A stretch of 63,779 nt of DNA, counting the filler, from Nemertoderma westbladi (taxonomy: Eukaryota; Animalia; Xenacoelomorpha): NCBI GenBank assembly GCA_032718475.1. It is 3 parts of 3 records of this genome, joined end to end, with 100 filler letters (N's around TTAATTAATTAA, not from the genome) between each part and the next. Parts side by side here need not be neighbours in the genome. Positions count along the whole stretch, not along the records: positions 1 to 25,873 come from JAUCBJ010002997.1; 2 more parts are not named here. One strand, 5' to 3'. Both the position numbers and the translations under genes were made by a program. The notes under the pieces are model-generated. The model was not told where the DNA came from and searched no databases. It saw only the letters and a list, made by a program, of their open reading frames with translations. Numbering within the stretch: the stretch's first letter is position 1; each line of letters begins with the position of its first letter. Of this stretch, positions 5,891 through 36,967 are shown one piece after another.

Positions 5891-8419
5891 AGGCCGACCA
5901 TCGGTCTAGTCGGGGACTGAAGAGCCGAAACAAATCGAAATAGTTGCCAATGGCAGAATGGAATGGAGTCACCAACGGGATGACGGCCGAAATATTCAAT
6001 ATTCAATACTATATCTTATGCAATCTCAAATATTCAATGTTCGATCCCTAGATGGGGCAGTACTGTTTGGGCACAGTGCTGCAACCCCGGCACTAGCCCA
6101 ACCCCGGCTTTCATCCTTCAGTGGTCTATTGGGAACCAAGGCAACTTGGGAAACAGAGTGGAAGGGTTTACTGTGGAAGATCACCCATGGTGGTGAACAG
6201 GTATTCCTTGGCTTAACGAGCCTAAAAGATTCTCCCATTCAAATATTCAATTCGGTACTGTACCTTCAATTCAATATTCAATCTTAGTATTATTTCTGTG
6301 CTTCGTTATTTAATAATGTGATTAGATAAAAAAATTAATTAATGAAATATAATTCATCTGTTAATTATTACAAAAAAAAAATCCAACATTATATTAACAT
6401 TTATATAGTTTTGAATTAAATGTTTCGAAATCAAGAGTCATTCAATGAACTTATACAGCAGTGTCATATCGCGTATCCCTTGGTTTAATCACTATTCTTT
6501 ATTCAGTATAACTGAATCCTGGCCCACCGCCTTCACCCTCCACTGATAATTTAAAATCGTAACTAATTCAATCTTTGACTAAATTATACCAAACTTGGTA
6601 AACATGTAATCTTGTCTATCGGTTAAAATAAACACAACTTGCTAAAGTTTCCCCTATAATGTTTTTTCCTATAGAACAGGATGCAGTTTTATTTCAGTAG
6701 TAAACAAGCTGTTATTTGCGTCGATTTTCACCTGGAGAGGGAAGAATATTGATTGCCCCCCCCCCCCCCCCCCTACCTGCAGTTAAGTGAAAATATTTCG
6801 GCACCATTTAATTTTATTATCACGGTCGCACATCAAGTAGTCTGTCAAAAGATACAATTCATTATAAACATAACAAAATTAATTATAATAATTCTAAAAA
6901 TATAAGGCAGATTTTCCTAAAGTTAGCTCTTTAGTCTTTAGCAATCTTACTTATAGACTTATAATATTATTTAAAGATATACAAGACTTATAAAATAATT
7001 GATGTTGAATAATTATTATTAAGATTAAAATATATTATTAGGAATTCGAAGAAAGCAACTTGTATTGAGTTAGTATTGGCAAGTTAATCTCACAAACCAG
7101 TCTAGTCTAACTTTAGAGTAGCCTTGTTCGCATTGTTCCAGGTTTAGGCCTATAGATTCCACCGTCTTCGTTCCAGGTTTAATACTGTAATAAACTCCGT
7201 TATCCGTCTCGATCGCTTCGCTATGCATCATCTTACTGCGTTTAATAAACTCCATCGCCTTCCTGTCATTCTCTGTTTTGTAGATTACTTCGCCATCGTC
7301 TGATCGCTTTGGTTGCGTGTTTAATACTGTAATAGACTCCGTCGCCATCGTATCGTTCTGGATACATTGAATAGACTCCATTGTCCATCGCGATCGTTTC
7401 ATTGTTTACGTTTAATTGACTCTGTCGCCTCTTCGGATTATGGATTAGGAATCCGGCCGGGTTTCGTAGATTCCGCCATCGTTCAGCAGTTCAGTGCTTT
7501 TAATCAAAGCCAGAATTCCGGCACCGGCACCACGACCAACGATTTCGGAAGTAACAGACTCCGTCAACAACACTCGGGGTTTAAAAAATACAACTATTAT
7601 CGGCAACTTGTAACTGGGCAATCATCTATCTGATAGTTGAAAAGACTGTCTGACAGTTGGTATCAGACTATCTGATAGTTAGCGCCCCATGGGTAAATCC
7701 TTACCCCATGGGCCGTTACCTCTCTGACTGACAGCGCAACAGCCCCTATAGGCCGATCCCCCATTAGTCATTGAAGCAATAACCAAAACCCCTCTCAAAC
7801 TATAGTATAGTAGTTTATACTGCTGTAATATCAATTTATAGATAAGTCACATCTGGCTCTCAACCCTGAGAATGGGCTTTAGTTTTTAACGGTATTTGTA
7901 TCATAAGGAGATAATTCTCGAAGATTGTGAAAAATATAAGTAGTTCGTTTCGTTATGTATAATATAAAAGAATATGTATAAAATTATAAATATATTTCAA
8001 AGGCTAAGTGCCAACATTGTCAACAATCTTGATACCTAAGACAGTAAGGATGTGTGATAACTCTAACTATAGATTAAGATTCAATTAAACTATAATTTCA
8101 GTATAATATTAATAATAGGCCTACATCAGTACCGGTACTGACAATCAAAGCAGTAACAACATACCTAAGTGTACAGTACAGTGTATATGCACATCACAAA
8201 TACATGCATAATTAATTGAATGTGCCCCCCCCCCCCCCATTTTTTGGTTTGTTCAATATCTTTTTTTTTAATAATCCTATTTAGGGACCCCCCACTTAAC
8301 TAGGACAGCTATGCTTAGATGATTCACCTCTACTGATAATCTTTTATTAATTGCACGTGGGCCTAATAATTTAATGTACAAACTCTCTAAAATTAGCCTA
8401 CCGTATAAATCTGTGACCC

Positions 8420-11400
8420 TCCCTATAACTGACTCCTGATCCCATACTGGTATGTGTCTGTTTCGACGTGGTGTCCCGCCAGCTCAGATGCTTTAGACCT
8501 ACGGTGCCGTATGTCACTATCGTGCTGCTCGATGCGGATGTCTAAACTGTACTTAGTCTGGCCAATGTATAAATCTCCACAGGTACAGGGTTTCTGATAT
8601 ACGACCCCAGGTAGCACAAGACGTCCACGAAAGAAATTGAACGTTCATATTTGGTACTTTTTTTATGCGAATCTGAACATCAATGAAATATTGTTCAAAA
8701 TAGGTAAAAATTGCTGACGTTGTGAGCAATTTACCAAATTGTGACGTTCACATTAGGTAATTTAACGTCCTAACTTTAAAGAAATTGAATATGAACCAAA
8801 ACAAACGAATATTGAACGTTCAAATTGCGTCCAGTTATGCGTTCATTTCTTTGTACCTAAATATGTACGTTGTTTGAACATTTATGAACGTTCAAACATA
8901 ATTTAATTTAACTTGTTATGTCAATGGCATGTTCAAACTTGTTCGTGATACAATTATCTGACTATTTATTATTGTGCAATTATTTTTTATGTTGGTTAGC
9001 CTACTCCTTGTATGGTTGGTGTGGTTCCGCTTAGTTATAAATGGACTAATGGTTCATTCTCAATACAAAACAATTACTTTAAGTAATCGAAAAATTATTC
9101 ACACAACAAAACATTGATAACCAATACAATGCTGACGCATTTTTAAACATTTTAAACAACAAATAACATCAAAATTTGACAAAGGTGATTCTACTGATTA
9201 CTAAAGTTAATACACTAGTACTACTGTATGTCACGAAAAATTGTAATAAAATTATTAGAATATATTAGGCCTATTGAACCAAGAAAATAACAAACAAAGA
9301 AAACCGCAAAAGTTTGTCTATTTTGATACCAACTGACCAAATACCATTACATTTTGTTGAGATAAATCGGATATATGGGCGTTGGAATGTTCAAACTTCT
9401 ATCATGCGTAGGGTAATTTTTTTAATCGCAAAACATTATTTTTTATTTTACAAATTTATCATATTATATAAAAGTTTCTTACGTTTCAATTGCTTTTTGT
9501 ATGTATTATTGCCTTATTGCATAGATACAAAATTTCAAATATCAATTATAAGGTCATAAAATTAATTAATTTTTTTAAGATTCATCAATATGAATAATCT
9601 ATTTTGGCTGGAAATAAGATAAAATACAGAAATCTAACTAATCCAATGCGAATTTGTGGATCATCACCATAATATATCATGGATACTCTTATATCACTAT
9701 CGATTAAATAATTTCATATATACCCTGATGCTTCCTTCTCTAAATGTATAGGGTATTGTAGGTGTAGGGCCGTAGGATAGGGTGTAGGGATTGGATAAGG
9801 TAGGCTAACCCCCCCCCCCCCCTCCCCCCTCCCCTCTCTACACAGAACATGCACCAACAAACAGTGATTGGTTGGTCTCACGTTAAATTTTTACGTTTAT
9901 TCAACCTAATATGGACCTATAACACACCAGAAATGAACGTCTAGTGAACACGTTATTTGAACATAGATTGCCTGTGGTCTCTTTTACGTTCAATTGCCCG
10001 TTCATATTACGGTACTTCTGACGGCCAACTTTGAACTATTGAACGTTTAGCATCAATAGCATCTTATGGGAGAAATACAACGTCATATGAACATAAATCC
10101 AGAACGTCTGGACGAATAATGAACGTAAATTTACCGTAAATTTACGTAATTGTGCTACCTGGGACATTCCTAGGTGGGCATCTTGGTTTATGTCAACAAT
10201 TATGGCAATATGTAAGTTTCCTTCCTGTAACTGTATATGTCCCAATGTTGTATTTTTTTACAAATGTGTTCTATTTGTTCCGTCAATCCCTTAATGTATG
10301 GAAGTTCTATGTTTTATACCTCTGGGCGTGTTCGCTGTGTTATTATATCCTCCTTAGGTATTGGTTTGTCGAATTTGTTGTTGACCTTATGAGAATTATG
10401 CATAATGCGAGTAGGGTACCCATTGGATTTTAGAGTGTATGCTAATTCCTATTGTGTGCGCCCCCTAGAGTCTAGATTTGAACATAATCTGTTGGTTCTA
10501 AAATAATCCACTACATACATATCTTGGGGTGATGGTTGGAACTAAAATGTAAATAACGGTTGGAATGGGTAGGTTTATGGTAAACTGTAGTAGATAAGGA
10601 ACCATTTTAATGTAACTAAGGTATCTAGAAAAGCGAATTCACCTTTGGAATTTTGCTTATCTGCAGTAAATTGCACATCACTACAGTATGTAGGCTGTTA
10701 GATAGTAAGATTTCGATATCATTAATATTTACAATGCACCAAGTGTCGTCGACATACCTATACCAAGTTTCAGGCAAAAAAGTTTCGAGCCCTGTCTTCT
10801 AAGCTAAACATAAACAGACAACACAATATGGGTGAAATGGGATTTACCATTGCGAGCCCTTTCACTAGTTCATAAATACAGTCACCATAAGAATAGGCAC
10901 TCTGCTCTAGAACATATTGGAACATATGCAACAAAATTCGAAAAGTGTCTACTGTGTTACCTGTACGTTCCGTAAACTCGGAATCGTTAAGAACAATATC
11001 TACTGCACATTTTTCCGCTTAACCTTTAGGAATGTTACCGAACATCAAATTAAACCTGTATGGTATCAACGTCTTTGATATTTACCTACAGGGTTGCTAG
11101 GTAACTTACTAAACTTAGATTCATCCCCTAAAATCTTTTCCATTTTCTCCTGATAATCAGATTTATTTAAGATGACAGTTTTATTGCCCTTATCCGCTGG
11201 GCGAATTATATTAGACTCGTCGCATGCAATACTATCTATTGCATCCCACTCATCTTCATTTAAATTAGCGTTAATAGGTGTACCTCTTCAAGTTTTCGAT
11301 AATACTTAAGAGTTTCGTGTCTAAAAGTTGCACCAATGCTGCCCCCTAATTGTTTAGAGGCCTTTTCTAGGGGAACAACAAAATCAGGCTCCGATACCTT

Positions 11401-11640
11401 TTTGGGTGTAGGTTCAAAGAGTAGGTTCTAAGACATCATGCTCTGTTTTTGTAAGAATTCGATTACTCTTATTAACGACAGTCTTTGGTGCAGTGGTTTA
11501 ACTTCTACCTGTAAAATTACATTGTTTTGTACGTAGCCAATCTAGTTTATATTTCATTTTTACGATATCTAACGATATCTAACCAATCAATATCTAACGA
11601 ATTAGTTATTAGCTAATGCGTAAAAGGGTCGCACAATCCA
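8420..11640 (-). mobile_element. Degenerate Penelope-like element (RT at ~10410-11640; GIY-YIG at ~8420-8605), split by a TIR transposon
   Basis: Minus-strand remnants PADKGNKTVILNKSDY, GLAM.NPISP, WYRYVDDTW, AFLDTLV, STTVYHKPTHSNRYLHFSSNH; GIY-YIG NVVYQKPCTCGDLYIGQT..L..RI.QH. Many stops and frameshifts. Confidence 0.85.
8606..10163. mobile_element. Non-autonomous TIR DNA transposon, CMC/EnSpm(CACTA)-like
   Basis: 14-bp perfect TIR CCCAGGTAGCACAA / TTGTGCTACCTGGG, 2-bp TSD AC (8604-8605, 10164-10165), many subterminal gaacgt(tca) repeats, no transposase ORF. Superfamily inferred from the TSD length and subterminal repeats. Confidence 0.85.
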
Positions 11641-11806
11641 GGTAGTAACCAATAAGAACTGCATACAGCGTGATTAACTTTTTACTATTATTATTTACTT
11701 TCGTATTCAACCAAAGATTCACTACATTTAGAAATACCTAATTTAGTGTATGACATTTCTGCTCATTGTGCGTAACTCCGTTTTAAATTTAACCGGGCAC
11801 TAACAT

Positions 11807-13357
11807 GTGGACTTTATAATGATCCCATTCGACTTCACCACCCTCCCCTTTCGCATTGAAGCCAAGCGAAGAGGAGAAACGAACCACGTTTCTAAAGGAA
11901 CCCGGACAACCCAACGGAGAGAAACCAACCCGTTTAAAATCTCCACTAACACATCACAAGTGACAAATATCTCAGCCACGATCAACCTTATAAATCGCCG
12001 TTACATGGTCTTCGCCAAAGTAATCCCAGTAAGAATTCAAGGGGTCGGCAAATCCTTGACGACACTCGCGTTCCTTGATAACGGGTCGGACGGAACCATC
12101 ATCGACCGGGATTTCCTCGAGCAACTCGGCCTAGACTATAAACCTTGCAAACGGCCCATACAAACTATCACCGACCACAGAGAGGTAGAATCCGGGGAGG
12201 TGCAACTCCAGATGGAAGGGGTAATGAAGGGCTACGAGACGGTTAAGATGACCATCAAGAACGCCTTAGTACACACAGACCTCCGAGTGCAGTTCCGACA
12301 ATCAGCCGAGTACGCCCCCCTCATACAGCTGGACCGAGACGACGTGGATCTAAGGTGCCCGCCGTTGGATGTAAACCGCATCACCCTACTGATCGGACTT
12401 GATACACCGGAACTACACATACCCACCAGAGACGTCGCCCGATCTATAAAGCAGGATGACGGCTTTTACGCTGAACGAACAATAATGGGATGGACACTCT
12501 GCGGCATCAAGGAAGAGACTACCGACACCTATACATACCTTCCTAAATGTCAGATTAAAGAAAATGCAACATCCGTGGGTTATTGCTCAGCTACAGACCT
12601 GGGCGAGGAATTATTCCTTGAGACCGAGAAATCCCAGCAGGAGCTGACCAAATACTTTAATCTAGAGACCCAAGAGTTTGCCGAGAAGGACGAGAATCCG
12701 TCCGAGGAAGATCAATATTGTATCGACATTTTTGATCAGGCAACGTTCAAAGACGGACATTGGTGCTCGCCCATGCTTTGGTGGCTAGTAATGTTGTTGA
12801 TGATAATAATGACGTGGATAACATTGACACCATTAATGGGAGAGTATGGACTAATCTGCCGTAATACCCGGATGGCGAACGCCTCGGTTGAGTCCCTCAC
12901 ACCCAACCACCTACTGGGAAGACCCAAGACCCATATTCCTCCAGAAATAATGTTTCCGGATCCCAACGATATCGCGAGACATACATATTGGAAGAAGGCC
13001 CAAGCGTTGGCAGCGCATTGGTGGAGAATCTGGGCCCAGGAGTACCTCATAACCCTCCGGACCAGGAGGAAGTGGAACAACACCTACAGGAATGTCGAAG
13101 TTGGCGACATGGTGCTGGTCAAAGAAGACCTCAGAGACCGCGTCCACTGGCCTGTGGCGCGAGTCGTGGCAATACAACCGAGCAAAGACGGACTTGCGAG
13201 GACTGTGACGATACGAACGGCAAAGGGCCACTACCAACGCCCTATCCAGAGGCTGTGCCTTCTTGAAGGCAATGACAGCGGTGACTCTACGAGAGGTGAT
13301 AAGTTTCCTACTCAAGATCCTGCTGCAGACATTGGTGACAAACCTAAACCCGTTTAA
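11807..13357 (+). pseudogene. Bel/Pao pol remnant: aspartic protease fused in frame to integrase C-terminal region; RT, RNase H and integrase core missing
   Basis: AFLDNGSDGTII and ITLLIGLD protease motifs; LTPNHLL..YWKKAQALA..WWRIWAQEYL..L..R.KW..N..VGD.VLVK..WPVARV..SKDG..R.V.IRT..RPIQRLC typical of the Bel/Pao integrase C-terminus. Confidence 0.88.
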
Positions 13358-14479
13358 ACCCTTCTCATCATGTTGACAAACTCTTTTAAACTGTGATTTA
13401 TTGACAATGAAAATGGACCCCCCTTAAACCAACTGTAACCACGCAATGGTATTTGTGTTTCCTCGTGTGTTATGTGGAGTCCAGCGTCACCCTGCAGATG
13501 TTTCGACTGACGCAGGGTCGTTTATGTATTGTTTACCCTGATTTTGGTCATCGGGACCAATGACATTGGATTATTGGAAATGGTAAAGATTTGAAGTGGA
13601 ATTCATTGTATCCATTGTAGTATGTTATGTTGTCCGTTGCGTGCGCAGTTCGGGGCGTAGGCGGTGTAACTAGTCCAGCTGTAGATCCCGGATTGCCGCG
13701 CAACACCCCCTTTATCCCGTTATTCTGGTGGGTCCATGGTGCATCCACATGACTTCGACGATAGAGGGTTTTATGTTTCTCAGTCGCGTTATTCTGGTGG
13801 GACCGTTGCGTGGATTTTGGGGCATAAGCGGTGTAACTAGTCCAGCTGTAGATCCCAGAATGTTGCGTAACCCCATCCCACATGACTTCGTCGGCTGAGC
13901 TTTATGTTGTTGGGAGTGTTATTCTGGTGGGTCCCTGGTGCATTCCACGTGACTTCACTTCCAGCGTCTTCATTGTCCGTTACGTGTGCAGTTTGGGGCG
14001 TAGGCGGTGTAACTAGCCCAGCTGTAGATCCCAGATTGACGCGTAACACCCCTTCCACAACGAAAATTTCCCAAAGAAGATGATTGAATGTAGTTGGAAA
14101 TGATGAAAAGAAACAGACGACATTACTATAAACCGAATGATGACGCGTATGATGATGAAAATGTAATGATGCGCACCCTGGTGCTGCGCTTATAACAAAT
14201 GATGATAGCCGGGGGGCTATAACCCCAATGATGATGTGGAAATAAATGGAAATGTGAAATAAATGTGAAATAAATGGTGGAACTAAATGATGAAATGTGT
14301 TGAAATAAATGAAATGTGATGAAATAATAATGAGAAATGAAAAAAGACAAAAAAAGGTATAAAAAGTCTAAAGAAAAGAATTGGAAACAAGAAAAGGACA
14401 TAAAAAGTCATAAAAACTGTTTCAGACTTTCTGGACTTATAATTAACTGATCTAATTTGTAACGGACATAATCGTAAAT

Positions 14480-16927
14480 ATGGACCCAAATCGCCAAATT
14501 ATCGGCGAATTACGTAATACGATAGATCTACTGGAATATCCGCAACCTGGATCCCCTAACTTTGATACGAATTGGAATGCCCTGATAAATGAGAACGTGC
14601 GAGTCGTTAAATTCACCGGGCGAGAGGGACCGGATTCCCGGAACCTACGAGAGCTCCGGTTGGCCGATGCTAGTACGAGACTGAAAAGAACTCGGAACGC
14701 AAAGGCAACCGGATGGGACGAGTCGTCGTTCTGGGAAACTTTCCGGCAAAGCGTCTACAAATCCCGATGTTTGATATACGACAACGAAGGAAACGCGACG
14801 CCCACCTCGAAAGCGATTACGTTGGCGAGATGTCAAAGTTTCGTCGACGACAAGAGTACGTACCTCGCCCACTGGGGAAACCTGTCGGAGTGTACGGCGA
14901 CGCTACGAGAGGAACGTATATCGATCATCCAGAATTGCGACGACTACCAGGAAAAGTACGGGTCGAAAAAATATGGTCGATCCTTGGTCGTCGTCCTCGG
15001 AACCCTGGACGGTTTGGTATTGGTGTGTCGAATATTTCCGACACCCAGACAGGAAGTGCAGGCAGCCGGAGCGATCTGGTTACTACCTCCGGAAATCCAA
15101 AAGATCCTTTTCGACTTCGACGTCATTAAAATCGGGTCGGATATAAAGGCGGACGTCCGGAATGACTACGCGAACGCTCCTTCAGGAAGAGACCGACGAG
15201 ACGACCTCAACGCCCTTAGCCATTGCGTCGACACTCAAACGCTATTAGCCTGGTTACGATTCGCTGAGTTCATGCGAGGATTCCGAGAGGTGAGACCGAC
15301 GAAATCCGGGATCGGCTACCTCGCTGTGCTAAACGGCGGCATCGACTTCAAACCCCAGAAATTCCGGGATTATAATAAAATATATGGTGGATACCCGGGA
15401 TTAGAAATAAAGAGCGAGCGAGAGGGTCGATGGAAGGACGTTGAGAGAAAGTGGACGATACACCAAAGGTGGGAGAATCTGGATCGACGGAACTACATCT
15501 ACGTCGTTATGGAATCATACACCGTCGCTAAGTTTATCTGTAAAACTCTCGATAACCTCATTACGGCGGTTCCTCTTTCCTTCGTCGACTACGACTGGAA
15601 CGAGGTTATAAACCACGCATTCAAAGCGGTCGAGAACATTACACCGGGAGAGACGAAAACGCTAGCCGTTATCGATTCCTGGGACGAGAGTGGACCTTAC
15701 GACATCCCTACGATTACCGATCTTCTCGGTGCGGAGGAGCCTCTGATTTCTTCGGAAGGGGAAGAACTATGGCTACATGAGGGTGTCCTACTCTCCACCC
15801 CGAAGCGACAACTCGAGCCGGAGGCCGCTTACCAACCGGCCGCCAAACGGATTGCTTCGGCCGAACCTACGACGGAAGCAGGCATATTATCCCCACTCGG
15901 CTCCGGTAGCCCTGCGAGGGAGTTAATCACCACCTCCGCGTTGAGCGACTTCGGCGATATATGCCAAAGGTTATCACCATATCCTTTCCCGGGAGGCGAA
16001 GACTGGTCTTCGGAGATTCCGAGTACCAGCAACCAACGGCCCCGCTCAGCGATACTGGTTGAAAAGGGTCCCAGCGCTGCGCCGACTCCCGACGATCTCC
16101 TCGGTATCCCTCGGTCGAAAACCCCGGCACCTCTTCGCCGACCAGCGGTGGCTACTACACCCTCCGTTCCTCAGGATCCTATGCGACTAACCCGTTGGTA
16201 CGCCGAGCAAACCGAATGGATCCACCGCCAGAAACGGTCGTCCGAGTTGAGACCGACGGGACACAAAGAAGGTTATCGGAGCGAGGACCTACTACGCAAA
16301 AGCCCAGCCTTCCGCGGGCTACCGACCACCGCGAATATTCAGAAGAGCGACCGACGACTCGAGTATTACGTCGGCGTCCCGATTCCGATATTCCCCGGTC
16401 GAGAGATGCAGTTGGAGGTGTGCGGTAACTGCGGTTCGGAGCAGTGCCCACGCGGTAGAAGGAATCGGGTTACCGATTCATGCCTCCAGCTCCTCGGGAT
16501 ACTTTATTGCCCATACTGCGCGACATCGGGCCACGACGTTTCCGTCTGTCCGATCCTATATAACCTCTGCACCACGTGCGGTTTCCGTGGACATTCCGCT
16601 AGCCCCCGCTGCTATATCAAATGTCCTACCAAAGACGTTACCGCTATGGGAAATATGGTCATGTTTGAAACATACGCAAACAGCCACATAAAGACCAAGG
16701 TTCGGAGAAACGCTCGGATTATCGCGCAGGAGATGGCGTGCGGGTATTTCTCCTTCCCGGAACGCCTCCACACGACGGCCACGCTGCCTTTCCATTGCGT
16801 GGATCTGTTGCTGAGCGCCGGATTATTCGGCCCATTCGAAGTCATTAGACGCTTATACTCGTATAAAGAGGAGTTCGGTGACGGAAAGTGGTTCCTAGAG
16901 GCGCGCAACACCGAGTTGGAAAGATGA
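14480..16927 (+). CDS. 815-aa retrotransposon accessory protein: DEDDy (WRN/EXD-like) 3'-5' exonuclease-like domain, Pro/Ser-rich linker, C-terminal Cys/His zinc knuckles
   Basis: Uninterrupted ATG-TGA ORF. LPPEIQKILFDFDVIKIGSDIKAD (ExoII-like), CVDTQTL, SGIGYLA, RWENLDRRNYIYVVMESY (ExoIII-like); CPYCATSGHDVSVC and CTTCGFRGHSASPRC knuckles plus CGNC..C. Confidence 0.7.
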   Translation: MDPNRQIIGELRNTIDLLEYPQPGSPNFDTNWNALINENVRVVKFTGREGPDSRNLRELRLADASTRLKRTRNAKATGWDESSFWETFRQSVYKSRCLIYDNEGNATPTSKAITLARCQSFVDDKSTYLAHWGNLSECTATLREERISIIQNCDDYQEKYGSKKYGRSLVVVLGTLDGLVLVCRIFPTPRQEVQAAGAIWLLPPEIQKILFDFDVIKIGSDIKADVRNDYANAPSGRDRRDDLNALSHCVDTQTLLAWLRFAEFMRGFREVRPTKSGIGYLAVLNGGIDFKPQKFRDYNKIYGGYPGLEIKSEREGRWKDVERKWTIHQRWENLDRRNYIYVVMESYTVAKFICKTLDNLITAVPLSFVDYDWNEVINHAFKAVENITPGETKTLAVIDSWDESGPYDIPTITDLLGAEEPLISSEGEELWLHEGVLLSTPKRQLEPEAAYQPAAKRIASAEPTTEAGILSPLGSGSPARELITTSALSDFGDICQRLSPYPFPGGEDWSSEIPSTSNQRPRSAILVEKGPSAAPTPDDLLGIPRSKTPAPLRRPAVATTPSVPQDPMRLTRWYAEQTEWIHRQKRSSELRPTGHKEGYRSEDLLRKSPAFRGLPTTANIQKSDRRLEYYVGVPIPIFPGREMQLEVCGNCGSEQCPRGRRNRVTDSCLQLLGILYCPYCATSGHDVSVCPILYNLCTTCGFRGHSASPRCYIKCPTKDVTAMGNMVMFETYANSHIKTKVRRNARIIAQEMACGYFSFPERLHTTATLPFHCVDLLLSAGLFGPFEVIRRLYSYKEEFGDGKWFLEARNTELER

Positions 16928-17259
16928 ACCGATATGATCCCGATGCCATCGAAAGGCAGAGCCGCCAGGAGACAAGCCGAAGCGTTGCTCACGATGGATG
17001 TTTGACGCTCCCCTTCCAGCTCTAGCGATCGACGAGAGTCGATGGGCGAAGAGGAGAAAGGCGTATCAGAGAAAGAAATAGTGGATCGGGATATTCCAGG
17101 AACATTTATTGAACATTTATTTTTATACATATATATATACATAAACTCTAGGCCAAATTAATCAAGACTATGCAATATTAAATTTGGATTTTTTATATTG
17201 GGAATGACCTACGCAAACTCAATCTACCGATAGACCTCACGAAGGTCATTGGGGGGGAC

Positions 17260-18458
17260 TGTTCGCGGTATTTCAACTTTTCATAACGCGAGTTGAATAT
17301 TTTTTGTATTTATTTAAAATGATTATTCCGATATCACTACTGGGTGCGGGACCATGGGTTTTGGGCACATTCTATGGACTGGGGGCGATTTATGGGCGAA
17401 TATTGGGGCGACTTACAGGGTACGGGAATAATTTCATGTTTATAAGGGCCAGGGGTGGGAGGCAAAGTTAAGCAGTATTCAGGTTAGCCTGAGTACTATT
17501 AGGCCCTGGCCAACTTCCTGTTGCCTGTAGAGGTGGATTTGGTAACGTGCCAGGCCTAAAGGACAAGGACTGCCCTTAGCGGTCCCTGGCCAACAGCAGT
17601 TATTACGAGCCTGAAAAGGACATCGGAACGCCAGCTGCTTGTGTCAGGGACTTGCGACGGGAAACGACACGACAGACCCCTAGCCAAGCCGTACTGGTTC
17701 TCGATGATCGTTCCCTTCGGGGTTCGTGAGGGGTGGGAAGGACACGCGAAAGGGTCTACCGACTAACAGAGGAAGGGTTTGACGAGGACTGCCCTTAGCG
17801 GTCTCTGGTCAACAGCAGTTATTACGAGCCTGAAAAGGACATCGGAACGCCGGCTGCTTGTACCAGGGATTTGCGACGGGAACCGACGACAGACCCCTTA
17901 GCCAAGCCGTACTGGTTCTCGATGATCGTTCCCTTCGGGGTTCGTGAGGTGTGGGACGGACACGCGACGGGGTCGAAAGACAAAGGACTGGACTCTACTG
18001 GCCTACCTACTGTTCGGAGCAGTTTCTCGGCTGCCGAAGCGACTACGAGCCTGAATAAGAACTCGGAAAGCCTAGGTGGTTGGGTCTCTGCGATGAACCG
18101 ACGGACCCCTAGCCAAGCCGTACTGGTTTTCGATGATCGAACCCTTCGGGGTTCGGGAGGGGTGGGACGGACACGCGAACGGGTCCACCGACACGACAGA
18201 CTCCTAGCCAAGCCGTACTGGTTCTCGATGACCGATCCCTTCGGGGTTCGAGAGGGGTGGTACGGATACGCGACAGAGTCTACCGACTGGACCGACCCTT
18301 AGCCAAGCCGTGCTGGTTCTCGATGAAAGATCCCTTCGGGGTTCGGGAGTGGTGGAACGGACACGCGACAGGGTCGACCGACACCGACACTACGGCACCA
18401 AGACTAGGACCGCGGGAAAATCTGGGGAACATTAGTTAGGCTAAAATCTGAGCGAACA
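17260..18458 (+). repeat. 3' LTR (~1.2 kb) containing five ~84-nt stem-loop repeats and a ~220-bp internal duplication
   Basis: TG...CA ends with 7-bp terminal inverted repeat TGTTCGC/GCGAACA; G-rich PPT immediately upstream. Confidence 0.8.
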
Positions 18459-18739
18459 GTGGGTAATTAGATAATATACTGTAGGGATTTATATTGTCGT
18501 GTATAATTATTGTGAATATTTGGTGTATATTGATTTGGGGAAGCCCAATTAATTCTCAATCAAGGTTCAGTGAGATTAGCTCAAGGTTCAACTGTAGGGA
18601 AGTTACATTAAAGCGTATATCCAACCAATGCAGCTTTTTCTCAACCGCAATCTTGCATTTAGGAACATTCCTTCTCCACAATCAATATCCGGTGACTGGC
18701 CGGGATTCCGTGGTCTGTAAAATTCCGCCTCCAGCATCA

Positions 18740-19250
18740 GCGTTTTTCCCCCATGGTGTCGGGAATAACGGCAACAAAGGGACTGTCGCGCCGGACACCC
18801 CACCAAAGTAGATATCATGGTCGGAGAGATCTCCAAAAGGATCTATGGGACTAGCATTTGTCTGATTAACCGTAGGCAATGGGGAATCGTAACTGATCTC
18901 ATTGAGCACGTTCAGGCTTGGTTGAGCCCACCAGTTGTTCGAGTTGAACTATAGGGAAGGGATAGTCCTTCCGGACACCCCACCAAGGTAGATATCGTGA
19001 TTGGAGAGATCTCCAAAAGGATCTACAGGACTAGCACTCGTCGGATTAACCATAGGCAATGGCGAATCGGAACTGAACTCGTTGCGTGCATCCAGACGTT
19101 GTAGAGCCCACGAGTTTAACTGTAGGGACGGGATAGTCGTTCCAAACAACCCACCAAGGTAGATATCGCGATTGGAGATATCTACGAAAGTATCATTCAT
19201 GGTGTTCATCTCGTTAAGCGCATCCAGACATGGTTGAGCCCATGAGTTTA
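18740..19250 (-). repeat. About three diverged ~170-bp repeats reading as a peptide repeat (PFGDLS.HDIY.GG.SG.T.P.L) in a stop-interrupted minus-strand frame
   Basis: ORFs 18682-18909 and 18949-19209 share the repeated peptide and lie in one frame separated by a stop. Confidence 0.6.
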
Positions 19251-20232
19251 ACTCTCAAAAGATTTCGTCAGGGTCAGGAGGCGTGGTCCCTGTAGGCCTA
19301 CCCCTACATGTACCTGATCTCAATCCTCCTGGTCTGGATGGATCCTGTACATATTCGAGTCTCGTCAATCTCATGACTGGGGTCGTACTACATATGTCGT
19401 ATTTGTATCATCAACGGTATTTTGTATCTCAGTGCAGATATCAGATTCAGACTTGTGCTTTTACTGGCTTTTACTGGTTTAATGGTTTATTACCTATGAT
19501 ATTTCTATTTTACATGGAAGGAAGAACAAGAAGCAAGTTTTCCTAAGATCTATGTCACAAATCCATCACTACAGATCCACGAGAACAAACCAAACTCTCA
19601 AACTCAAGCGAACGGTAACCTGCCGCGCATGTGTTCTTAGATCTAGCCGGCTACAGCGACACTCCCAGATTCAGGGTTTTAGCCAAATTAATCATTATCA
19701 GAGAGGATTGAATCAATCGATCAAACGATTGAATCGATCAGGTATTTACCCTCCTTGGGAAAGGTTAGCTACCACACTGCCCGCCAAGAGAAAATTGGGG
19801 AAAAAAAATTGGGAAATTACAATGTCCCAAATTTCCAGACCTCAGCATTAATTGTATTATTCCCGGTTGTGTTTAGTGTTGCATTGATACTAAGTTTGTT
19901 TTCGAGGCTAGTTAGCCAGGCCACAGAATTGGTGTCAGGGAGGTTTGACAAGAACACATCACCCCCAGCTAACTTTAAAATATGCCTTTTTGTTAGCAAA
20001 ATGACTCATATGCCAGGCCATTACTGCACCAGGTGATGCTTTTAGAATACTGTAGAATGTAAACATCTGATAGATAGATTCACATACCCTTGATGGGATG
20101 ATGGACAGTTGGCCTTATTTTTAGAGAAATAACCGAATCCTGGTTAAATACATTTATTATTGACTTCCAATGATAATAAATATTTGTCATCTCTAGTATT
20201 CAGTTGGAGGGCAATATTGTATAATTGATATC

Positions 20233-23200
20233 ATGAATCTAGATCCAACAATGGCAAAGAGTGCATTTGAATTAAGAAAAAAAGAAAGCCAAGTTCCTTG
20301 GATATGTAGTTGCAGACTAAATATGGCAGTTGTTGCATTCTTTGGATGCGTTTCACTCTATGCCCTGCGTATCAATATTTCAGTTGCGATATTATGCATG
20401 GTTCGGGATATGGAGGGTGATAATTTAAACTCTTCCGATTTAACACCAACTTTGAATTCTAACAACACTGAATCAAACGTTTGTGAAGCTGTCCAAGACA
20501 TGTCTGAGACACTTAAAGTTATTAAGGGTGAGTTTGACTGGTCACATGATATAAAGGGTTACATTCTGAGTTCATTCTTCTGGGGTTATCTCGTGACCCA
20601 GATACCAGGAGGTTGGTTGGCTGAAAGATATAGTGCGAAGTATATTATTCTCATATGTATGGTGTGTAAATCAATTGCCACATTCTTGTGTCCTATAGCA
20701 GCTAAATTGCACTGGGGATACCTATTGGCTATGCGCGTAGTAATCGGATTGGCAGGGGGTGTCTGGTTTCCTGCCCTTCACTGTATCATTGGTAATTGGA
20801 GCCCCCCATGGGAATGCAGTACAATAGGTGCCATCGCGTGGTCGGGGATGCAGATAGGCAACGTTATTGGTCTATCATTGTCTGGAGTCTTGTGCCAGTA
20901 TGGATTTGACGGAGGATGGCCTAGCATATTCTACTTGATGGGGGCTGGCAATATAATATGGTGCATCAGTTGGTACTTTCTTGTCTTCGATTCACCACGT
21001 AAACATCCTAGAATTTCCGAAATCGAATATATATATATAAAAGAAAGCATTGCGAAAGAAAAAAGAATCAGTGGTGTCCGTGGCCCTACTCCTTGGAAAG
21101 CCATCTTTACATCAGTGCCATTCTGGGCTCTGCTAATTACCCAAACTTGCTGCCACTTTGGGGATTACATGCTACTGACTCAACTGCCTTCCTATATGAA
21201 CGAAGTCCTCCAATTTGATATAAAGAGCAATGGATTCTATTCTGCATTACCTTATATTGGATTCTTTATTATGATAAATGTTGGGGGTCAATTGTCTGAT
21301 CAACTTCGAGAAAGAAAGATACTCAGTACATCGCAGACGAGAAAGGTCAGATAATCTAACTTAAATTACATTTATATCTTTAATTGCCATTCTGCATTGC
21401 AACTGCTTTAAGAATGCTTTGATCGAAATGACCTTCATGAGATTATTCGCTCTTTCAAGGACAGTGTCCTTTAATTAAGAGATGTCCACAACATGGGATG
21501 TCCACCATGCTTATTCTCTCCATGAGGCTGCGAAATCACAAGATTGTGCAACGTAAGGAAAGCTTGAAAAGTTGATAATTATATTTTATTTATATTTATA
21601 TTTAACGTCAAGCTACTAATAGTAAAAAACCGTACCGGTAGGTATGTACAACAATAAGTAAAGAAAAATCGACTGGAGACCCAGACATGCATGTAATAGT
21701 GATCTGCTGACTGCAGACAGCTGATCGGTAGTTTGTTTGAACGCGTTAGACAACACCAGGACAGTACAGCCAATGATGGGAGTGAGCAGGGCAAGACTGT
21801 GCACCACCACATCACGACGCACCGTGGCGAGCCCAATACACATTAGCTGACTAACTGGCGTGAGCTTTTTAAACATTTCAAAGTTATTGCTAGGCACCCA
21901 CTGCGGCCTGTTCTGCAAAAGCTTGAAATTTACTATATTCGCATGCGCCAGCCAGTTATCAACAAGCAGAAACGTGATTGGCATAAGTGTGTGCTTAGTT
22001 AACTAGTTAACCCCATCACACTTTGCCTGTTCTTCTTATTTGGGAACTTCACTCTACTGTCGTCCTGCTAGCTTGAGCATCCTGAGGAAGCCCGCTGTAT
22101 TGGGGCGAAACCTACCGATCAGCTGTCTGCAGTCAGCTGATCACTATTACATGCATGTCTGGGTCATAACAAATTTGGTACACACACTTTGAATAAACAT
22201 TGGAATCAGAAAATTCACGGTGGTCTTCGCTTTTCAATTCTCATAAGATTAATTTTTTTTTTCGCTTTACCTTCTATGCTATTTCTCTTGCTTTGTCTTT
22301 CTTGGTGTGCTTCTTTTGTGCAGTAATCTTTCACTTAAAAATATCTTGTACATGTGAGTAGATTATTTTCACTCATTTTCCATACAAATATCATGGACGC
22401 GGCGCAGTCCAACTCAAATTTCGAGTATTTCAATGAAATCCACGAACTAGTGGCACTTGCTACTATGTGGATTTCATTCGAATTCGGATCCTCACCCAAT
22501 AATTAAATGTATCTATCTATATTACTTTATTTCGTGTTTGCTATCGTGCTGGTGCTGGGTCTGTCGTACCATATTTTATTGGAATTATTAAAGTTCAAGT
22601 TCAAAGTTCAAGTTCAAGTTCAAAGGGTATCCAGTCGATTTTTATTTACTTGTTGTACATACCTAGCGGTACGGTTTTTCACTATTAGTAGCTTGACGTT
22701 AAATATAAATATAAATAAAATATAATTGTGCAATGGTTGGTCATCACAGCGAAAACAATGACCTACAATGTGGGGGTGAATATGTTCCAGTGTTGGAGGA
22801 CCAAATTGACTCCTCCAATGGTTGGAGGTGCATGTGCATTGAACTTGACCCAATGAACCCAGTGAAGCATGCTTGTGTATGTATCTTGGACAGCCAAATC
22901 AATGCTGCCCATAACTTTCCCTTACGTACCTTTTGTCCATCACCCTAAAGTATGTGCCAATTATAGCTGTATAACTTAGTATTTTATTTCTTTATTATGA
23001 TTAATATTTTATTAGGTAATGAACTCTATTGGATCTGTGTGCCCTGCCATATTTCTCGTTGCCACCAGCTACATGACTTGTAATCAAGGTGCAACCGCGG
23101 TCGCTCTGTTGACTATTGGCGTCTCATTTAGTGGATTCCAATATGGCGGTGGTTTCCTTGTGAATCACATCGACCTCGCCAGAAAGTACGCCGGAACTCT

Positions 23201-23450
23201 CCTGGGCATAACCAACACATTCGCCTCCATCAGCGGGATCATCGCCCCAAACATCGTGAGCGCGATCACTGTGGATAAAACGCGCGACCAATGGCAGACT
23301 GTGTTCTACATGACAGCTGGGGTTTACCTTGTCGGGGCAGTTATATTCATTGTATTGGGTGATGGAGAAACACAGCCCTGGGCTACCAATGACTACACTG
23401 TTGATTTAAATGTTGTTGATGATAAGGAAGCAGCTGAAACAAAATTCTAG
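20233..23450 (+). CDS. SLC17 / sialin-like MFS anion:cation symporter; exons 20233-21345 and 23016-23450 (~515 aa)
   Basis: YALRINISVAILCM, GYILSSFFWGYLVTQIPGGWLA, GGWPSIFY, PRKHPRISEIE, TPWKAIFTSVPFWA, NHIDLARKYAGTLLGITNT. Phase-0 intron GT(21346)...AG(23015) joins TRK|VMNSIG. Confidence 0.93.
21470..22960 (-). mobile_element. Decayed RTE-like LINE fragment in the SLC17 intron, interrupted by a ~1.17-kb insertion (21552-22724) with nested inverted repeats
   Basis: 21470-21551 and 22725-22960 align consecutively to the 38060-38370 LINE copy; ATTGTGCAA is duplicated at 21543-21551 and 22725-22733. Confidence 0.7.
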
Positions 23451-25873
23451 CGTACAGTACTCCATTGGCATGGTTATCAATCAGTCTCTAGCATAATATT
23501 TTTATGGAAAAGGTTATGGACAATCTCGTTATATATTTGGTTAATATTATCTTTTCAAATTTTGACTTTTTTCGATTTTTTTTGCTCTTAATTAACTCTT
23601 CGGACACATTGTGCTTCTAATATTTGTTTTATTTACTTTCCCGAAGTGCGGTGATTCTGGTTTTAAGTTATTTTGGATATTTTAAGTAAAATAATATGAG
23701 CATATATTATAATATATTCATGCTTTGTGTTGGACTACAATAATTAATTATGTGTATATTGGAGGTGCCCAGCAAGCACCAAACATTAGTTAGTGTTTTA
23801 GCTTCGTATTTAGCATCAGATAATTTATGAATATTTTACATGATTTTAATAAGCGTTATGCAGTCAATAAATTTGAGGGATTCTCAAAAACATTTGGCGC
23901 TGAAGAATGTTTCGTTTTATGTTTTGTATCCCTAGTAACTATAATTCTTATTGGGTTAAGTTAAGTTGAAAAGGTAAAGTTATTTATTATCTATCGTTCT
24001 ATTAAAAATACGGATGATACTTGGTGGGAAAGTTCCTCAGCATGTTAACTGTTGTTGATAAGTTAATGTGCCTTACGAAGCGAGAGAGGTATGATTCAAG
24101 CAGAAAATGGCGCCGGTTGGTCGCATGCGAAACCTACTTTCGTTTATTGACTTGGTTAGAGATCACCATCCCTGCAACAACCTGATCCTAATCCCCTTCA
24201 TATTTTCATTTACTTTTACAAATTCTTTAAACCAGACCGGCTACTATTCTGAGCCATAGACTCGGTATAAGAAAATACTTGCCTGTGAGTATCGTGTTCC
24301 AAATATTGGTAGGATAACTCAAACTTGTCAAGGCAGATGATAACAAACTACCTGATGATTGGACATGTGTGCTCTTGTGTACCAGTTTACCAATTTACAA
24401 TAAAATTATATTATATTTATCAAACTACTTTTTAAAGTTTTAATGGGTTTATCAAACCAAACTACATGGATATCCAGACAATTAAAATAAAATAAAACGT
24501 TCCATGAGTAACATGACTAACTCCATATTATCTTATCAAAATTTCGTCGTGACTGTTAATAATGCCACTATATTGGAAGCACTGCAATCTTCCCAGCTAC
24601 CCCCCCCCCCCCCCCCCCTCCCACCTTAAGTTTGTTTGTGCATTGTAGTACAGTCAATATACTTAAAGTCACAGATTGTAGCTTTGAATAATAATTTACG
24701 ATTATTAAATAGTGAATCCTTCTGCCATGCTATATGATTTCCTACAATATATACATATACATGGATATCCCGCTAGGGGATATAACACATGCAGTTACAT
24801 GTAACAGTCTCTTTCGAACCCTCTGAGTCATTCTTCAGACTCCCTATGTATTTCGATTCTTCGTAAACTCTAAAACCCAACCTAATCAATTAATTATTTA
24901 TTTATTTTAATTCAATAATATACATGTGGGAATTCTTGTATTTTTGTAAATGTATGATTTCTATTGAAATGCAGCACTAATAGTATTCATGTCAAAAATA
25001 CTGAATGAATAGCTACGTATAAGTTAAAACTTATAAATATAACACAATAAATAATGAACTCAATAACATTGGGGAGGGGGAGTAAATAAATTTACGAAAG
25101 AAATTTTACAAAATTGATGTGGTGCATATTATTTAGGGAAACATATTATTAATAAAGTGCACAAACGAGACAAAAAACACATGGGTGTCAATAGGCATAG
25201 TAGTTTTTCATTTGGAAAGATAGAGCGATAGCTGTAGTGCCTTCGTTACCATAGCAACACTTCAATAGTTTCTCTAAAAATTTTCATGTTTTCGATCAAA
25301 ATTACAACCAGTTTAAGCCCAACAGTTAATCGCCATTCTGATTGCTAAGCTTTCAAAGAAATTGCTGTAGTCCATAGAAACGGGTCATTAATTCAAATTG
25401 CCCAAGGTGTCAAAGTCCATAAATCACTTTTTTATGTTAAGAGGGACCCCTAGACACCAAAACATCCAAAAAATGTAATCCGTCCAAAAATTTTCGGTTA
25501 GGCCAAAAAGAGGTACGTGGCTGCCGGACTAATAGTTGCAATTTGTTTATAATAAATTTTAATAGTAAATTTTGTGAGTGGGCATATAGAAACAGCAATA
25601 CATAATGGAACATTAGTTGCTAAACATAAATTTATTAATGTTCCTAGTATAGGCCTATTTAATTATTTACAAATATTAAATAATTATTATTAAAATGATT
25701 AAATTGATAGTTTTCGTAACGTTTGCTGTTTCTGCTATATCTGCTATAGGATTGAAGTGTTATAGTCCGCAGCCAGTCATATTTGAGGATTGCTTTGTCT
25801 GTTTGGTAAGTGGTACAAACAATTTCATCTATGATATAAAAAAGATATCCTAAAAAAGCCTTTAAAAAACATG

Positions 25874-25973
25874 NNNNNNNNNNNNNNNNNNNNNNNNNNN
25901 NNNNNNNNNNNNNNNNNTTAATTAATTAANNNNNNNNNNNNNNNNNNNNNNNNNNNNNNNNNNNNNNNNNNNN
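25874..25973. other. Artificial contig-joining spacer
   Basis: 44 N + TTAATTAATTAA (stops in all six frames) + 44 N; identical to the spacer at 57335-57434. Confidence 0.95.
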
Positions 25974-26090
25974 AGCAAATGTCATGGATGATAGGGAGTT
26001 GTGGCGGTGCAATTTTGTTGACAAGCCGGCACAGCATTCTTAAAAATGCAGCTGCAATGCAGCATGCCGATCCTAGTAGTAGTAGTAGTA
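25974..26090 (+). mobile_element. 3' end of RTE-like LINE with (TAG)n tail
   Basis: Matches 4273-4383; ends in cctagtagtagtagtagtag. Confidence 0.8.
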
Positions 26091-26515
26091 GGTCTGTGTT
26101 TTGTACCTGGGGGGTCTGTGTTTTGTACCTGAGGGGGTCTGTGTTTTGTACCTCAGTACCTGGGGGGGTCTGTGTTTTGTACCTGGGGGGTCTGTGTTTT
26201 GTACCTGGGGGGGTCTGTGTTTTGTACCTGGGGGGGTCTGTGTTTTGTACCTGGGGGGGTCTGTGTTTTGTACCTGGGGGGGTCTGTGTTTTGTACCTGG
26301 GGGGGTCTGTGTTTTGTACCTGGGGGGGTCTGTGTTTTGTACCTGGGGGGGTCTGTGTTTTGTACCTGGGGGGGTCTGTGTTTTGTACCTGGGGGGGTCT
26401 GTGTTTTGTACCTGGGGGGGTCTGTGTTTTGTACCTGGGGGGGTCTGTGTTTTGTACCTGGGGGGGTCTGTGTTTTGTACCTGGGGGTCTGGGGTCTTGG
26501 GTCTGTGTTTTGTAC
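26091..26515. repeat. 23-bp minisatellite (tctgtgttttgtacctggggggg)n
   Basis: Direct tandem units, ~18 copies, beginning right at the LINE tail. Confidence 0.97.
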
Positions 26516-27000
26516 ACAACCATGGTTTTATACTTTATTCTAGATATTAATTTGTTTTATTTAGCAAACGTTTAACACTTTAGTTTGTTTGTAGAGGGCC
26601 GGGGGGTCTATTGTCCGAGGATGGGGGCTACTGTCCTAGAACATCTTTTTGTATAATGTAGTTCCGGCCAATATTCATAGCTATATATAAAGTCTAAGCC
26701 ACTCTTCATACTTATAAGTTTAGATGTTGGTCATTAAAAATAATTTAACATTTTCTATAGCGCCAAGTGAGCGCGTCACTTTTGTCTAGGATATTATTAA
26801 TTACAAACTCGAATCGATCTTAGCCACCGAGGCTATAATAATTCAAGATTATGTTCATTTCTTTTTATTAACAAGTAAATTTACCTTCAGCATGGAGATA
26901 GCAGTCACTACTGGTCTTCTCTGGATGATGGAAATTACAATAGCAATGAGGTCTGTAATACTGCGTGGTCGTGTATTATTTCTTTAGTTATTTGTGAAAA

Positions 27001-30000
27001 CTACTCTGTCCCCCCAACCCGATGGTAGTGTACCACTCTGTCCTCCAACCCCGATGGTAGTGTACCACTCGTCCTCCAACGCTGATGGTAGTGTACCACT
27101 CGTCCCCCCAACCCGATGGTAGTGTACCACTCGTCCCCCCAACCCGAAGGCAGTGTACCACTCGTCCCCCCAACCCGATGGCAGTGTACCACTCGTCCCC
27201 CCAACCCGATGGTAGTGTACCACTCTGTCCTCCAACCCCGATGGTAGTGTACCCCTCTGTCCTCCAACCCCGATGGCAGTGTACCACTCTGTCCCCCCAA
27301 CCCCGATGGTAGTGTACCACTCGTCCCCCCAACCCCTATGGTAGTGTACCCCTCTGTCCTCCAACCCCGATGGCAGTGTACCACTCTGTCCCCCCAACCC
27401 CGATGGTAGTGTACCACTCGTCCCCCCAACCCCTATGGTAGTGTACCACTCTGTCCCCCCAACCCCGATGGCAGTGTACCACTCTGTCCCCCCAACCCCG
27501 ATGGTAGTGTACCACTCGTCCCCCCAACCCCTAGGGTAGTGTACCACTCGTCCCGCCAACCCCGATGGTAGTGTACTACTCTGTCCCCCCAACCCGAGGG
27601 TAGTGTACCACTCAGTCCCTCCAACCCCTAGGGTAGTGTACCACTCGTCCCCCCAACCCGATGGTAGTGTACCACTCTGTCCCCCCAACCCCGATGGTAG
27701 TGTACCACTCTGTCCCTCCAACCCCTAGGGTAGTGTACCACTCGTCCCCCCAACCCGATGGTAGTGTACCACTCTGTCCCCCCAACCCCGATGGCAGTGT
27801 ACCACTCTGTCCCCCCAACCCCTAGGGTAGTGTACCACTCGTCCCCCCAACTCCTAGGGTAGTGTACCACTCGTCCTCCAACCCCGATGGTAGTGTTCCA
27901 CTCTGTCCCCCCAACCCCTATGGTAGTGTACCACTCTGTCCCCCCAACCCCGATGGCAGTGTACCACTCTGTCCCCCCAACCCCGATGGTAGTGTACCAC
28001 TCGTCCGCCCAACCCCTAGGGTAGTGTACCACTCGTCCCCCCAACCCCTAGGGTAGTGTACCACTCGTCCTCCAACCCCGATGGTAGTGTACCACTCTGT
28101 CTCCCCAACCCCGATGGTAGTGTACCACTCTGTCCCCCCAACCCCGATGGTAGTGTACCACTCGTCCCCCCAACCCCTAGGGTAGTGTACCACTCGTACC
28201 CCCAACCCCTATGGTTGTGTACCACTCTTTCCCCCCAACCCGATGGTAGTGTACCACTCTGTCCCCCCAACCCCGATGGTAGTGTACCACTCTGTCCTCC
28301 AACCCCGATGGTAGTGTACCACTCTGTCTCCCCAACCCCGATGGCAGTGTACCACTCTGTCCCCCCAACCCCGATAGTAGTGTACCACTCGTCCCCTCAA
28401 CCCCTATGGTAGTGTACCACTCTGTCCCCCAACAACGATGGCAGTGTACCACTCTGTCCCCCCAACCCCGATGGTAGTGTACCACTCGTCCCCCCAACCC
28501 CTAGGGTAGTGTACCACTCGTCCCCCCAACCCCTAGGGTAGTGTACCACTCGTCCTCCAACCCCGATGGTAGTGTACCACTCTGTCCCCCCAACCCCGAT
28601 GGTAGTGTACCACTCTGTCCTCCAACCCCGATGGTAGTGTACCACTCTGTCCCCCAACCCCGATGGCAGTGTACCACTCTGTCCCCCCAACCCCGATAGT
28701 AGTGTACCACTCGTCCCCCCAACCCCGATGGTAGTGTACCACTCTGTCCCTCCAACCCCGATGGTAGTGTACCACTCTGTCCCCCCAACCCCGATGGCAG
28801 TGTACCACTCTGTCCCCCCAACCCCGATGGTAGTGTACCACTCTGTCCCCCCAACCCCGATGGTAGTGTACCACTCGTCCCCCCACCCCTAGGGTAGTGT
28901 ACCACTCTGTCCTCCAACCCCGATGGTAGTGTACCACTCTGTCCCCCCAACCTCGATGGCAGTGTACCACTCTGTCCCCCCAACCCCGATGGCAGTGTAC
29001 CACTCTGTCCCCTCAACCCCGATGGTAGTGTACCACTCGTCCCCCCAACCCCTAGGGTAGTGTGCCACTCTGTCCTCCAACCCCTATGGTAGTGTACCAC
29101 TCTGTCCCCCCAACCCCGATGGTAGAGTACCACTCTGTCCTCCAACCCCGATGGTAGTGTACCACTCGTCCTCCAACCCCGATGGTAGTGTACCACTCTG
29201 TCCCCCAACCTCGATGGTAGTGTACCACTCTGTCCTCCAACTCCGATGGTAGTGTACCACTCTATCCCCAACCCCGATGGCAATGTGCCACTCTGTCCCC
29301 CAACCTCGATGGTAGTGTACCACTATGTCTCCCAAATCCTATGGAAGTGTACCACTCTGTCCCCCAACACCGATGGTAGGTTGGTGGCTTGGTGCCACTC
29401 TGTCCCCCAACACCGATGGTAGGTTGGTGGCTTGGTGCCACTCTGTCCCCCAACACCGATGGTAGGTTGGTGGCTTGGTGCCACTCTGTCCCCCAACACC
29501 GATGGTAGGTTGGTGGCTTGGTGCCACTCTGTCCTCCAACACCGATGGTAGGTTGGTGGCTTGGTGCCACTCTGTCCCCCAACACCGATGGTAGGTTGGT
29601 GGCTTGGTGCCACTCTGTCCCCCAACACCGATGGTAGGTTGGTGGCTTGGTGCCACTCTGTCCCCCACCACCGATGGTAGGTTGGTGGCTTGTTACCACT
29701 CTGTCCCCCAACACTGATGGCAGTGTACCACTATGTCTCCCAAATCCTATGGAAGTGTACCACTCTGTCCCCCAGCACCGATGGTAGGTTGGTGGCTTGG
29801 TGCCACTCTGTCCCCCAACACCGATGGTAGGTTGGTGGCTTGGTGCCACTCTGTCCCCCAACACCGATGGTAGGTTGGTGGCTTGGTGCCACTCTGTCAT
29901 CCAACACCGATGGTAGGTTGGTGGCTTGGTGCCACTTTGTCCCCCAACACCGATGGTAGGTTGGTGGCTTGGTGCCACTCTGTCCTCCAACACCGATGGT

Positions 30001-36955: not shown

Positions 36956-36967
36956 ATAATTTTCCAG

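Follow-up and report, generated by a model that had tools for sequence, protein, structure and literature searches.

Juno and Vesta, LTR retrotransposons of bdelloid rotifers, are gypsy-like elements. Like Athena/Terminon they carry a third open reading frame, ORF3, with a DEDDy exonuclease domain (PMC5408684; also PMC6431247 and PMC6338049), as a preliminary description of the locus reported here had stated and as the accessible text of PMC5408684 bears out. In that text the bdelloid ORF3s are produced from a separate transcript. They resemble our gene in being a third ORF behind pol, in their RNase D-like DEDDy fold, in having no transmembrane segment, and in a non-canonical acidic set. They differ in the set itself, DEED there and D-E-D-E here, and in the carrier, which here is Bel/Pao. 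Nor does the accessible description in PMC5408684 include the three-knuckle module or the long linker present here.

The third genes reported for Bel/Pao elements are env-like, or there is none (PMC8742986); the same holds for those named in the accessible parts of further accounts, e.g. F-like in Roo and chuvirus/gB-like elsewhere (PMC3118150, PMC13524379, PMC12440569). They share with our gene the slot between pol and the 3′ LTR, but encode membrane glycoproteins, whereas a soluble nucleic-acid protein is predicted here. No exonuclease ORF in Bel/Pao is described in the literature searched; Repbase, subscription journals and supplements, outside that scope, may hold some. Two further exonucleases also invite comparison. 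In Trypanosoma brucei RNase D (TbRND; PDB 7c45, 7c42) a DEDD exonuclease is followed by CCHC knuckles, as here, and our family profile matches both parts. According to the available portion of PMC7797062, TbRND is a host enzyme that trims guide RNAs in mitochondria; its knuckles, four in number and all canonical, provide the binding to RNA and strongly increase cleavage, and its linker measures 28 aa, against ~250 aa between exonuclease and knuckles in our protein. The similarity is weak, and convergence is its probable source. The EXD2/WRN type (PDB 6k17) gives the best exonuclease-only profile match and the best fold match, with the motifs in order; it differs in its canonical Asp at ExoIII and in having no knuckles, and the scores are weak.

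How does the locus in Nemertoderma westbladi compare? The window, by which we mean the whole stretch of 63,779 nt analysed (GCA_032718475.1; positions 1–25,873 are JAUCBJ010002997.1), contains the following features.

11828–13357, plus strand: gag-pol remnant, 5′-truncated, with aspartyl protease and integrase C-terminus (DUF5641); reverse transcriptase, RNase H and integrase core missing
13358–14479, plus strand: non-coding spacer containing a stretch rich in A/T and short internal repeats, with many indels among copies
14480–16927, plus strand: ORF3, 815 aa, with a DEDDy-like exonuclease domain, a low-conservation linker and a zinc-knuckle module
17251–17258, plus strand: short, G-rich polypurine tract of 8 nt, recognised from its sequence
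17260–18776, plus strand: presumed 3′ LTR, TG...CA, ~1.5 kb, with internal repeats of 95 and ~220 bp and a provisional end

The stop-free frame extends from 14456 to 16927 and the ATG at 14480 opens ORF3. Among 500 shuffles of 13358–17260 no frame exceeds 289 aa, so the uninterrupted 815-aa sense-strand ORF first claimed for this locus stands. The same is true of the claim that it is not env. A hydropathy scan found neither the signal peptide (N-terminal maximum −0.18) nor the membrane anchor of an env-like glycoprotein; the sole hydrophobic window (2.08, aa 168–186) is a beta-hairpin of the exonuclease core. A Pfam search of ORF3 gave no match. There is thus no capsid match to suggest a retrotransposon Gag, nor is there any pol downstream, which agrees with the earlier view that ORF3 is not the gag of a nested element.

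Bel/Pao elements are marked in Pfam by DUF1759, Peptidase_A17 and DUF5641. The ORF upstream of ORF3 (11804–13357) fuses an aspartyl protease (E 4e-5) with DUF5641 (E 1e-28), which we take to be the integrase C-terminus typical of Bel/Pao. Since neither reverse transcriptase nor Pao-peptidase has a Pfam match in this ORF, and the protease is joined to DUF5641, we conclude that pol is gutted, as had been noted, yet ORF3 remains open. With pol gutted and no LTR pair, the window copy is not a complete autonomous element; it is a deleted derivative, truncated at its 5′ end and internally deleted.

Where does the element end? A TG at 17260 lies just past the purine tract, and the LTR end was set, presumptively, at 18776, a CA at the start of a flanking 180-bp repeat. 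Self-comparison of the window revealed no second LTR and no LTR pair, and the window holds neither a 5′ LTR nor a target duplication that would bound the element. The LTR is thus deduced from the polypurine tract, the TG...CA ends and contig depth. ORF3 had been placed between an integrase C-terminus and a polypurine tract plus LTR; DUF5641 and the tract bear this out, while the LTR, being unpaired, is presumed only. A stretch of 30–39 bases of ORF3 (14663–14700) recurs within the repeats of this presumed LTR at 17601–17631, 17820–17850 and 18033–18071 (85–87% identity, E 4e-6 to 2e-4), and could represent an RNA signal common to both or sequence captured from ORF3. We did not accept the joint 14700–17866 as a sign of deletion, 30–39 bases being common to both sides.

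Other copies were compared through contigs of runs X1, X3 and X4 mapped on the window. The summed depth of X1 and X3 contigs, which is not a copy number, climbs near 11828, where other copies continue into unlike sequence, lies at ~18,000–38,000 from 13012 through ORF3, is higher still over the presumed LTR and drops in the bin 18523–19023; that of a neighbouring host exon is 29–53. Contigs of X1 alone number 2912 on ORF3 and fall in all identity bands. ORF3 is therefore a multi-copy family.

Other features of the window include decayed reverse-transcriptase fragments on the minus strand at 10000–11500 (three pieces, no Pfam match), presumably Penelope-like by their motifs. A long single frame at 20197–21354 encodes an MFS transporter (MFS_1, E 4e-44), which we take to be SLC17-like, and ends at a repeat insertion near 21440–21550. 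Satellite arrays of 32 and 43 bp occupy 27003–34257, with more arrays at 35727–36949 and 50501–50983.

Is ORF3 a regular part of such elements? A phmmer search of 1.84 billion representatives returned eight matches (E 4e-13 to 1e-3, 29–36% identity), none with a useful name or Pfam domain. Among the homologues, the N-terminal domain and the Cys/His module occur together in P0001, P0002, P0003, P0005 and P0006; P0008 has the former alone, and P0004, P0007 and P0009, which may be fragments, the latter alone. Support in a nine-sequence tree is weak. Relatives were found in none of 104 candidates from viral contigs and none of 62 from prokaryote genomes. Word-index protein searches, one spanning proteins of at least 1795 aa and another missing known homologues, likewise found none, an outcome of little weight. 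The phmmer matches in the PDB, just DJ-1-like and antibody entries at E 0.1 or worse, were rejected.

We then turn to the genomic setting. Loci were scanned with alignment A5 of four homologues and picked by knuckle-region patterns, not by pol. Five of 139 candidates were confirmed (L001–L005), and in three of these the homologue lies downstream of Bel/Pao pol on the same strand (Peptidase_A17: L003, E 9e-44; L004, 2e-37; L005, 4e-44). L003 carries DUF1759, protease, RVT_1, Peptidase_A17, Integrase_H2C2 and DUF5641; in L004 and L005 Peptidase_A17 and an integrase precede the homologue. L005 is flanked by direct repeats of 407 bp (3–409 and 10458–10864, 94% alike), the first of which is followed by a PBS-like stretch. 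L004 and L005, 77% alike, form one family in which ORF3 is frameshifted in both; each also has an ORF upstream of gag (65–808 and 553–1344, respectively) with no Pfam match. L003 is distant from this family and from the window. The arrangement is therefore common to three distant lineages. Judged from L003–L005 together with the window, which contributes protease and DUF5641, the lineage has gag-pol of the Bel/Pao type, whose order is PR-RT-RH-IN; paired LTRs and the PBS-like stretch are seen in L005, the window itself having the PPT and one presumed LTR.

The remaining loci qualify the expectation that homologues always sit between Bel/Pao pol and the LTR: it is borne out behind pol in three of five, but L001 and L002 are without pol. 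L001, a 3.7-kb contig with no upstream sequence, encodes P0002 (79–2022), whose exonuclease is degenerate and whose knuckle module is doubled. L002 (16.7 kb) has the homologue and no gag-pol; at 8214–11277 an open 642-aa homologue lies between degenerate direct repeats, perhaps a derivative consisting of the gene alone or the retrocopy of a subgenomic RNA.

Might ORF3 then be a mere passenger, whether a piece of a host gene or a separate, nested element's gag, that does nothing for the Bel/Pao element? Such a view could appeal to L002 and to the unbounded state of the element in the window. It has to contend with a slot shared by three distant lineages, once inside paired LTRs, with the absence of a capsid domain and of a pol behind ORF3, with an X4 contig that links the protease region to ORF3, and with the purifying selection described below. 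We regard it as very improbable and already largely refuted. That ORF3 is cargo of a Bel/Pao lineage, as first proposed, we hold to be close to certain, the same slot recurring in L003–L005. It is a conserved accessory gene of that lineage; nuclease cargo itself is already known from other LTR groups.

What does the gene encode? Its product divides as follows.

14732–15622, plus strand: exonuclease-like domain, aa ~85–381, with predicted site D101, E103, D225, Y341 and E345
14789–14959, plus strand: insertion of ~55 aa between ExoI and the next strand
15677–16369, plus strand: weakly constrained Pro/Ser/acidic linker, aa ~400–630
16421–16849, plus strand: three zinc knuckles (aa 648–711) and a conserved segment after them (to aa ~790)

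A family profile of eight homologous domains, built without the window, matches nine RNase D/PolA exonuclease domains at 93% probability (E 3.5e-7) over 145 columns, from ExoI through ExoIII. With the window as master the same comparison gives 84.5% over 67 core columns, against 0.1% for the reversed control. Searched against the PDB, the family profile matches trypanosome RNase D in both parts (E 5e-4) and also EXD2 (E 0.0026); in the ESM Atlas 24 of 30 matches are PF01612 (score 0.91). An HMM of homologues only matches the window at aa 157–381 (E 1e-26). The structural models are poor. An AlphaFold model from seven sequences reached a pLDDT of 45, its best part being the helix and strand that bear ExoI, and a single-sequence fold reached 33. 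The top fold match of the former model is EXD2 at Z 5.4, below the trusted range (rmsd 3.6 over 77 residues), and Foldseek with it returned nothing at E 0.001. On the profile evidence we consider a DEDD-type fold, which the preliminary description had proposed, highly probable.

The motifs it cited are present: KIGSDIKAD at aa 217–225, with the ExoII Asp at D225, and YVVME at aa 341–345, where ExoIII reads Y341-x3-E345 in place of the canonical Y-x3-D. Its Glu for Asp at ExoIII is thus correct, and on this substitution we class the domain by sequence as DEDDy-like, not canonical. The statement that there is no clear ExoI DxE, on the other hand, does not survive. ExoI is D101-N-E103, upstream of the ~55-aa insertion and outside the aa ~120–370 then considered; WGNLSE, the candidate offered, sits in the insertion and is matched by no homologue. 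An ungapped helix-plus-ExoI profile made without the window ranks aa 85–103 top (14 of 5000 shuffles). Two alignments place D101 and E103 alike, while one of the three misplaces them. ExoI and ExoII are 124 aa apart in the window and 64–76 aa apart in five homologues, the insertion being longer than the matching stretch in any aligned homologue. Within it, aa 145–157 (14912–14950) looks like the homologues' pre-ExoI strand (52 of 5000 shuffles). Given this likeness and the one misaligned ExoI, the N-terminal fold may be rearranged, possibly because the N-terminal module of the domain was duplicated or reordered long ago.

Egalitarian, Exuperantia and EXD1 are inactive DEDD folds that bind RNA. 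Is ORF3 another such pseudonuclease, an adaptor whose dead exonuclease fold and knuckles bind the element's RNA for export, localisation or packaging? Loss of the acidic residues, as in EXD1, Egalitarian, Exuperantia and Maelstrom, is not seen here. All four acidic residues are kept in six of ten domains (window, P0001, P0005, P0006, P0008 and L003), and in the window and these five homologues, at 20–30% identity, the Tyr is kept too. The ExoIII acid is Glu in the window, P0001 and P0005, the last two having intact ExoI and ExoII, and Asp in P0006, P0008, L002 and L003. The remaining four domains (P0002, P0003, L002 and L004) are without one or more of the acidic residues, and since P0002, P0003 and L002 are still open they speak for an adaptor, as do the ExoIII Glu, the long insertion after ExoI, a knuckle module that is the most conserved part and is doubled in P0002, and knuckles without recognisable exonuclease in the possibly fragmentary P0004, P0007 and P0009. 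Against this view, catalytic codons show just one listed change, and that is silent. The adaptor proposed in the preliminary description remains a rival, some members having lost residues, but we do not favour it and judge it unlikely, because its missing-ExoI basis fails and the ExoIII Glu recurs in intact homologues. By its motifs the product is more likely a working, or at least metal-binding, nuclease; that the predicted metal site is functional seems to us slightly favoured.

Of the tandem CCHC knuckles first reported, three do follow, at aa 648–711, as CX2CX4CX11C, CX2CX4HX4C and CX2CX4HX5C, but only the middle one is canonical. Their module has the most invariant columns of the family. 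Their PDB profile matches include the knuckles of Lin28 and of nucleocapsid, and in the ESM Atlas the leads for this region (DUF8363, zf-CCHC) score under 0.9.

Is ORF3 maintained by selection? Copies differ at 434 substitution places in ORF3, of which the 40 best supported, and so not a random draw, were classed. In aa 1–400, 13 of 17 listed changes are silent, where a sixfold bias to transitions would lead one to expect a fraction of 0.30 (p 8e-5). Of the 21 in the linker, 9 are silent and 12 are replacements, and in the C-terminal part neither of two is silent. Indel places number 6 per 434 substitution places in ORF3 and 215 per 1171 elsewhere in 7000–22000 (p 2e-20), a background obtained by subtraction that takes in unrelated repeats. 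The six are all in two X4 contigs and are frame-neutral in sum; the four listed in the exonuclease region all fall inside the ~55-aa insertion. One piece of 835 bases has 164 differences and zero gaps. We read this pattern as purifying selection on ORF3. As to expression, the sense-strand start of an X4 contig (~85% identical), at 14546, carries an adapter-like end, which we assume to be a cDNA template-switch oligo; this is a weak hint that a related copy is transcribed in sense. X4 leaves uncovered two low-copy flanks that X1 and X3 do cover, which is compatible with cDNA and proves nothing.

How might such a protein act? Our best reading, which as a whole falls somewhat short of an even chance, is that ORF3 is a Bel/Pao third gene for a predicted DEDDy-like 3′–5′ exonuclease with three knuckles that trims RNA. 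The protein would be read from a subgenomic RNA and act free of Gag-Pol. Its exonuclease domain would likely bind metal and trim RNA 3′ ends, while the knuckles may hold single-stranded RNA and pass the end on to the catalytic site, a division of labour that we take as likeliest by analogy with TbRND, in which knuckles raise both binding and cleavage. The likeliest targets would be small or antisense RNAs matching the element, favoured because a protein that is free of Gag-Pol is well placed to act in trans; their loss would make host silencing weaker, which would benefit all copies in trans. The window copy is immobile by itself, its ORF3 probably having been constrained while the lineage was active and later deletions having spared the frame. 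We think RNA rather than DNA the probable substrate, and give silencing RNAs as the target roughly an even chance.

Alternatively, an active nuclease might work on the DNA side, brought into the particle by its knuckles to trim or proofread cDNA ends before integration or during reverse transcription. The nearest folds include EXD2 and PolA proofreading domains, the knuckles resemble those of nucleocapsid, and DEDDy enzymes work on RNA and on ssDNA (accessible text of PMC5408684). But ORF3 stands apart from the packaged polyprotein as an ORF of its own, 1.1 kb behind pol, the sole solved exonuclease-plus-knuckle match is an RNase, and most Bel/Pao elements replicate without such a gene (PMC8742986). 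We find this alternative distinctly improbable.

Carried further, the RNA-trimming reading would have an old Bel/Pao branch of aquatic invertebrates possess its own small-RNA-destroying, knuckle-guided D-E-D-E ribonuclease as a trans-acting suppressor of silencing, and derivatives with the gene alone, L002 among them, could spread or persist as helpers; in this extended form it is speculative and rather unlikely. Since the family has no Pfam model, annotation pipelines miss ORF3. Its members offer a natural test of whether a Glu at ExoIII supports catalysis. The locus extends nuclease cargo to the Bel/Pao superfamily, where an exonuclease-plus-knuckle gene has been retained across distant lineages, and provides one soluble protein for studying why DEDD nucleases are carried by retroelements at all, a question left open in the available text of PMC5408684.
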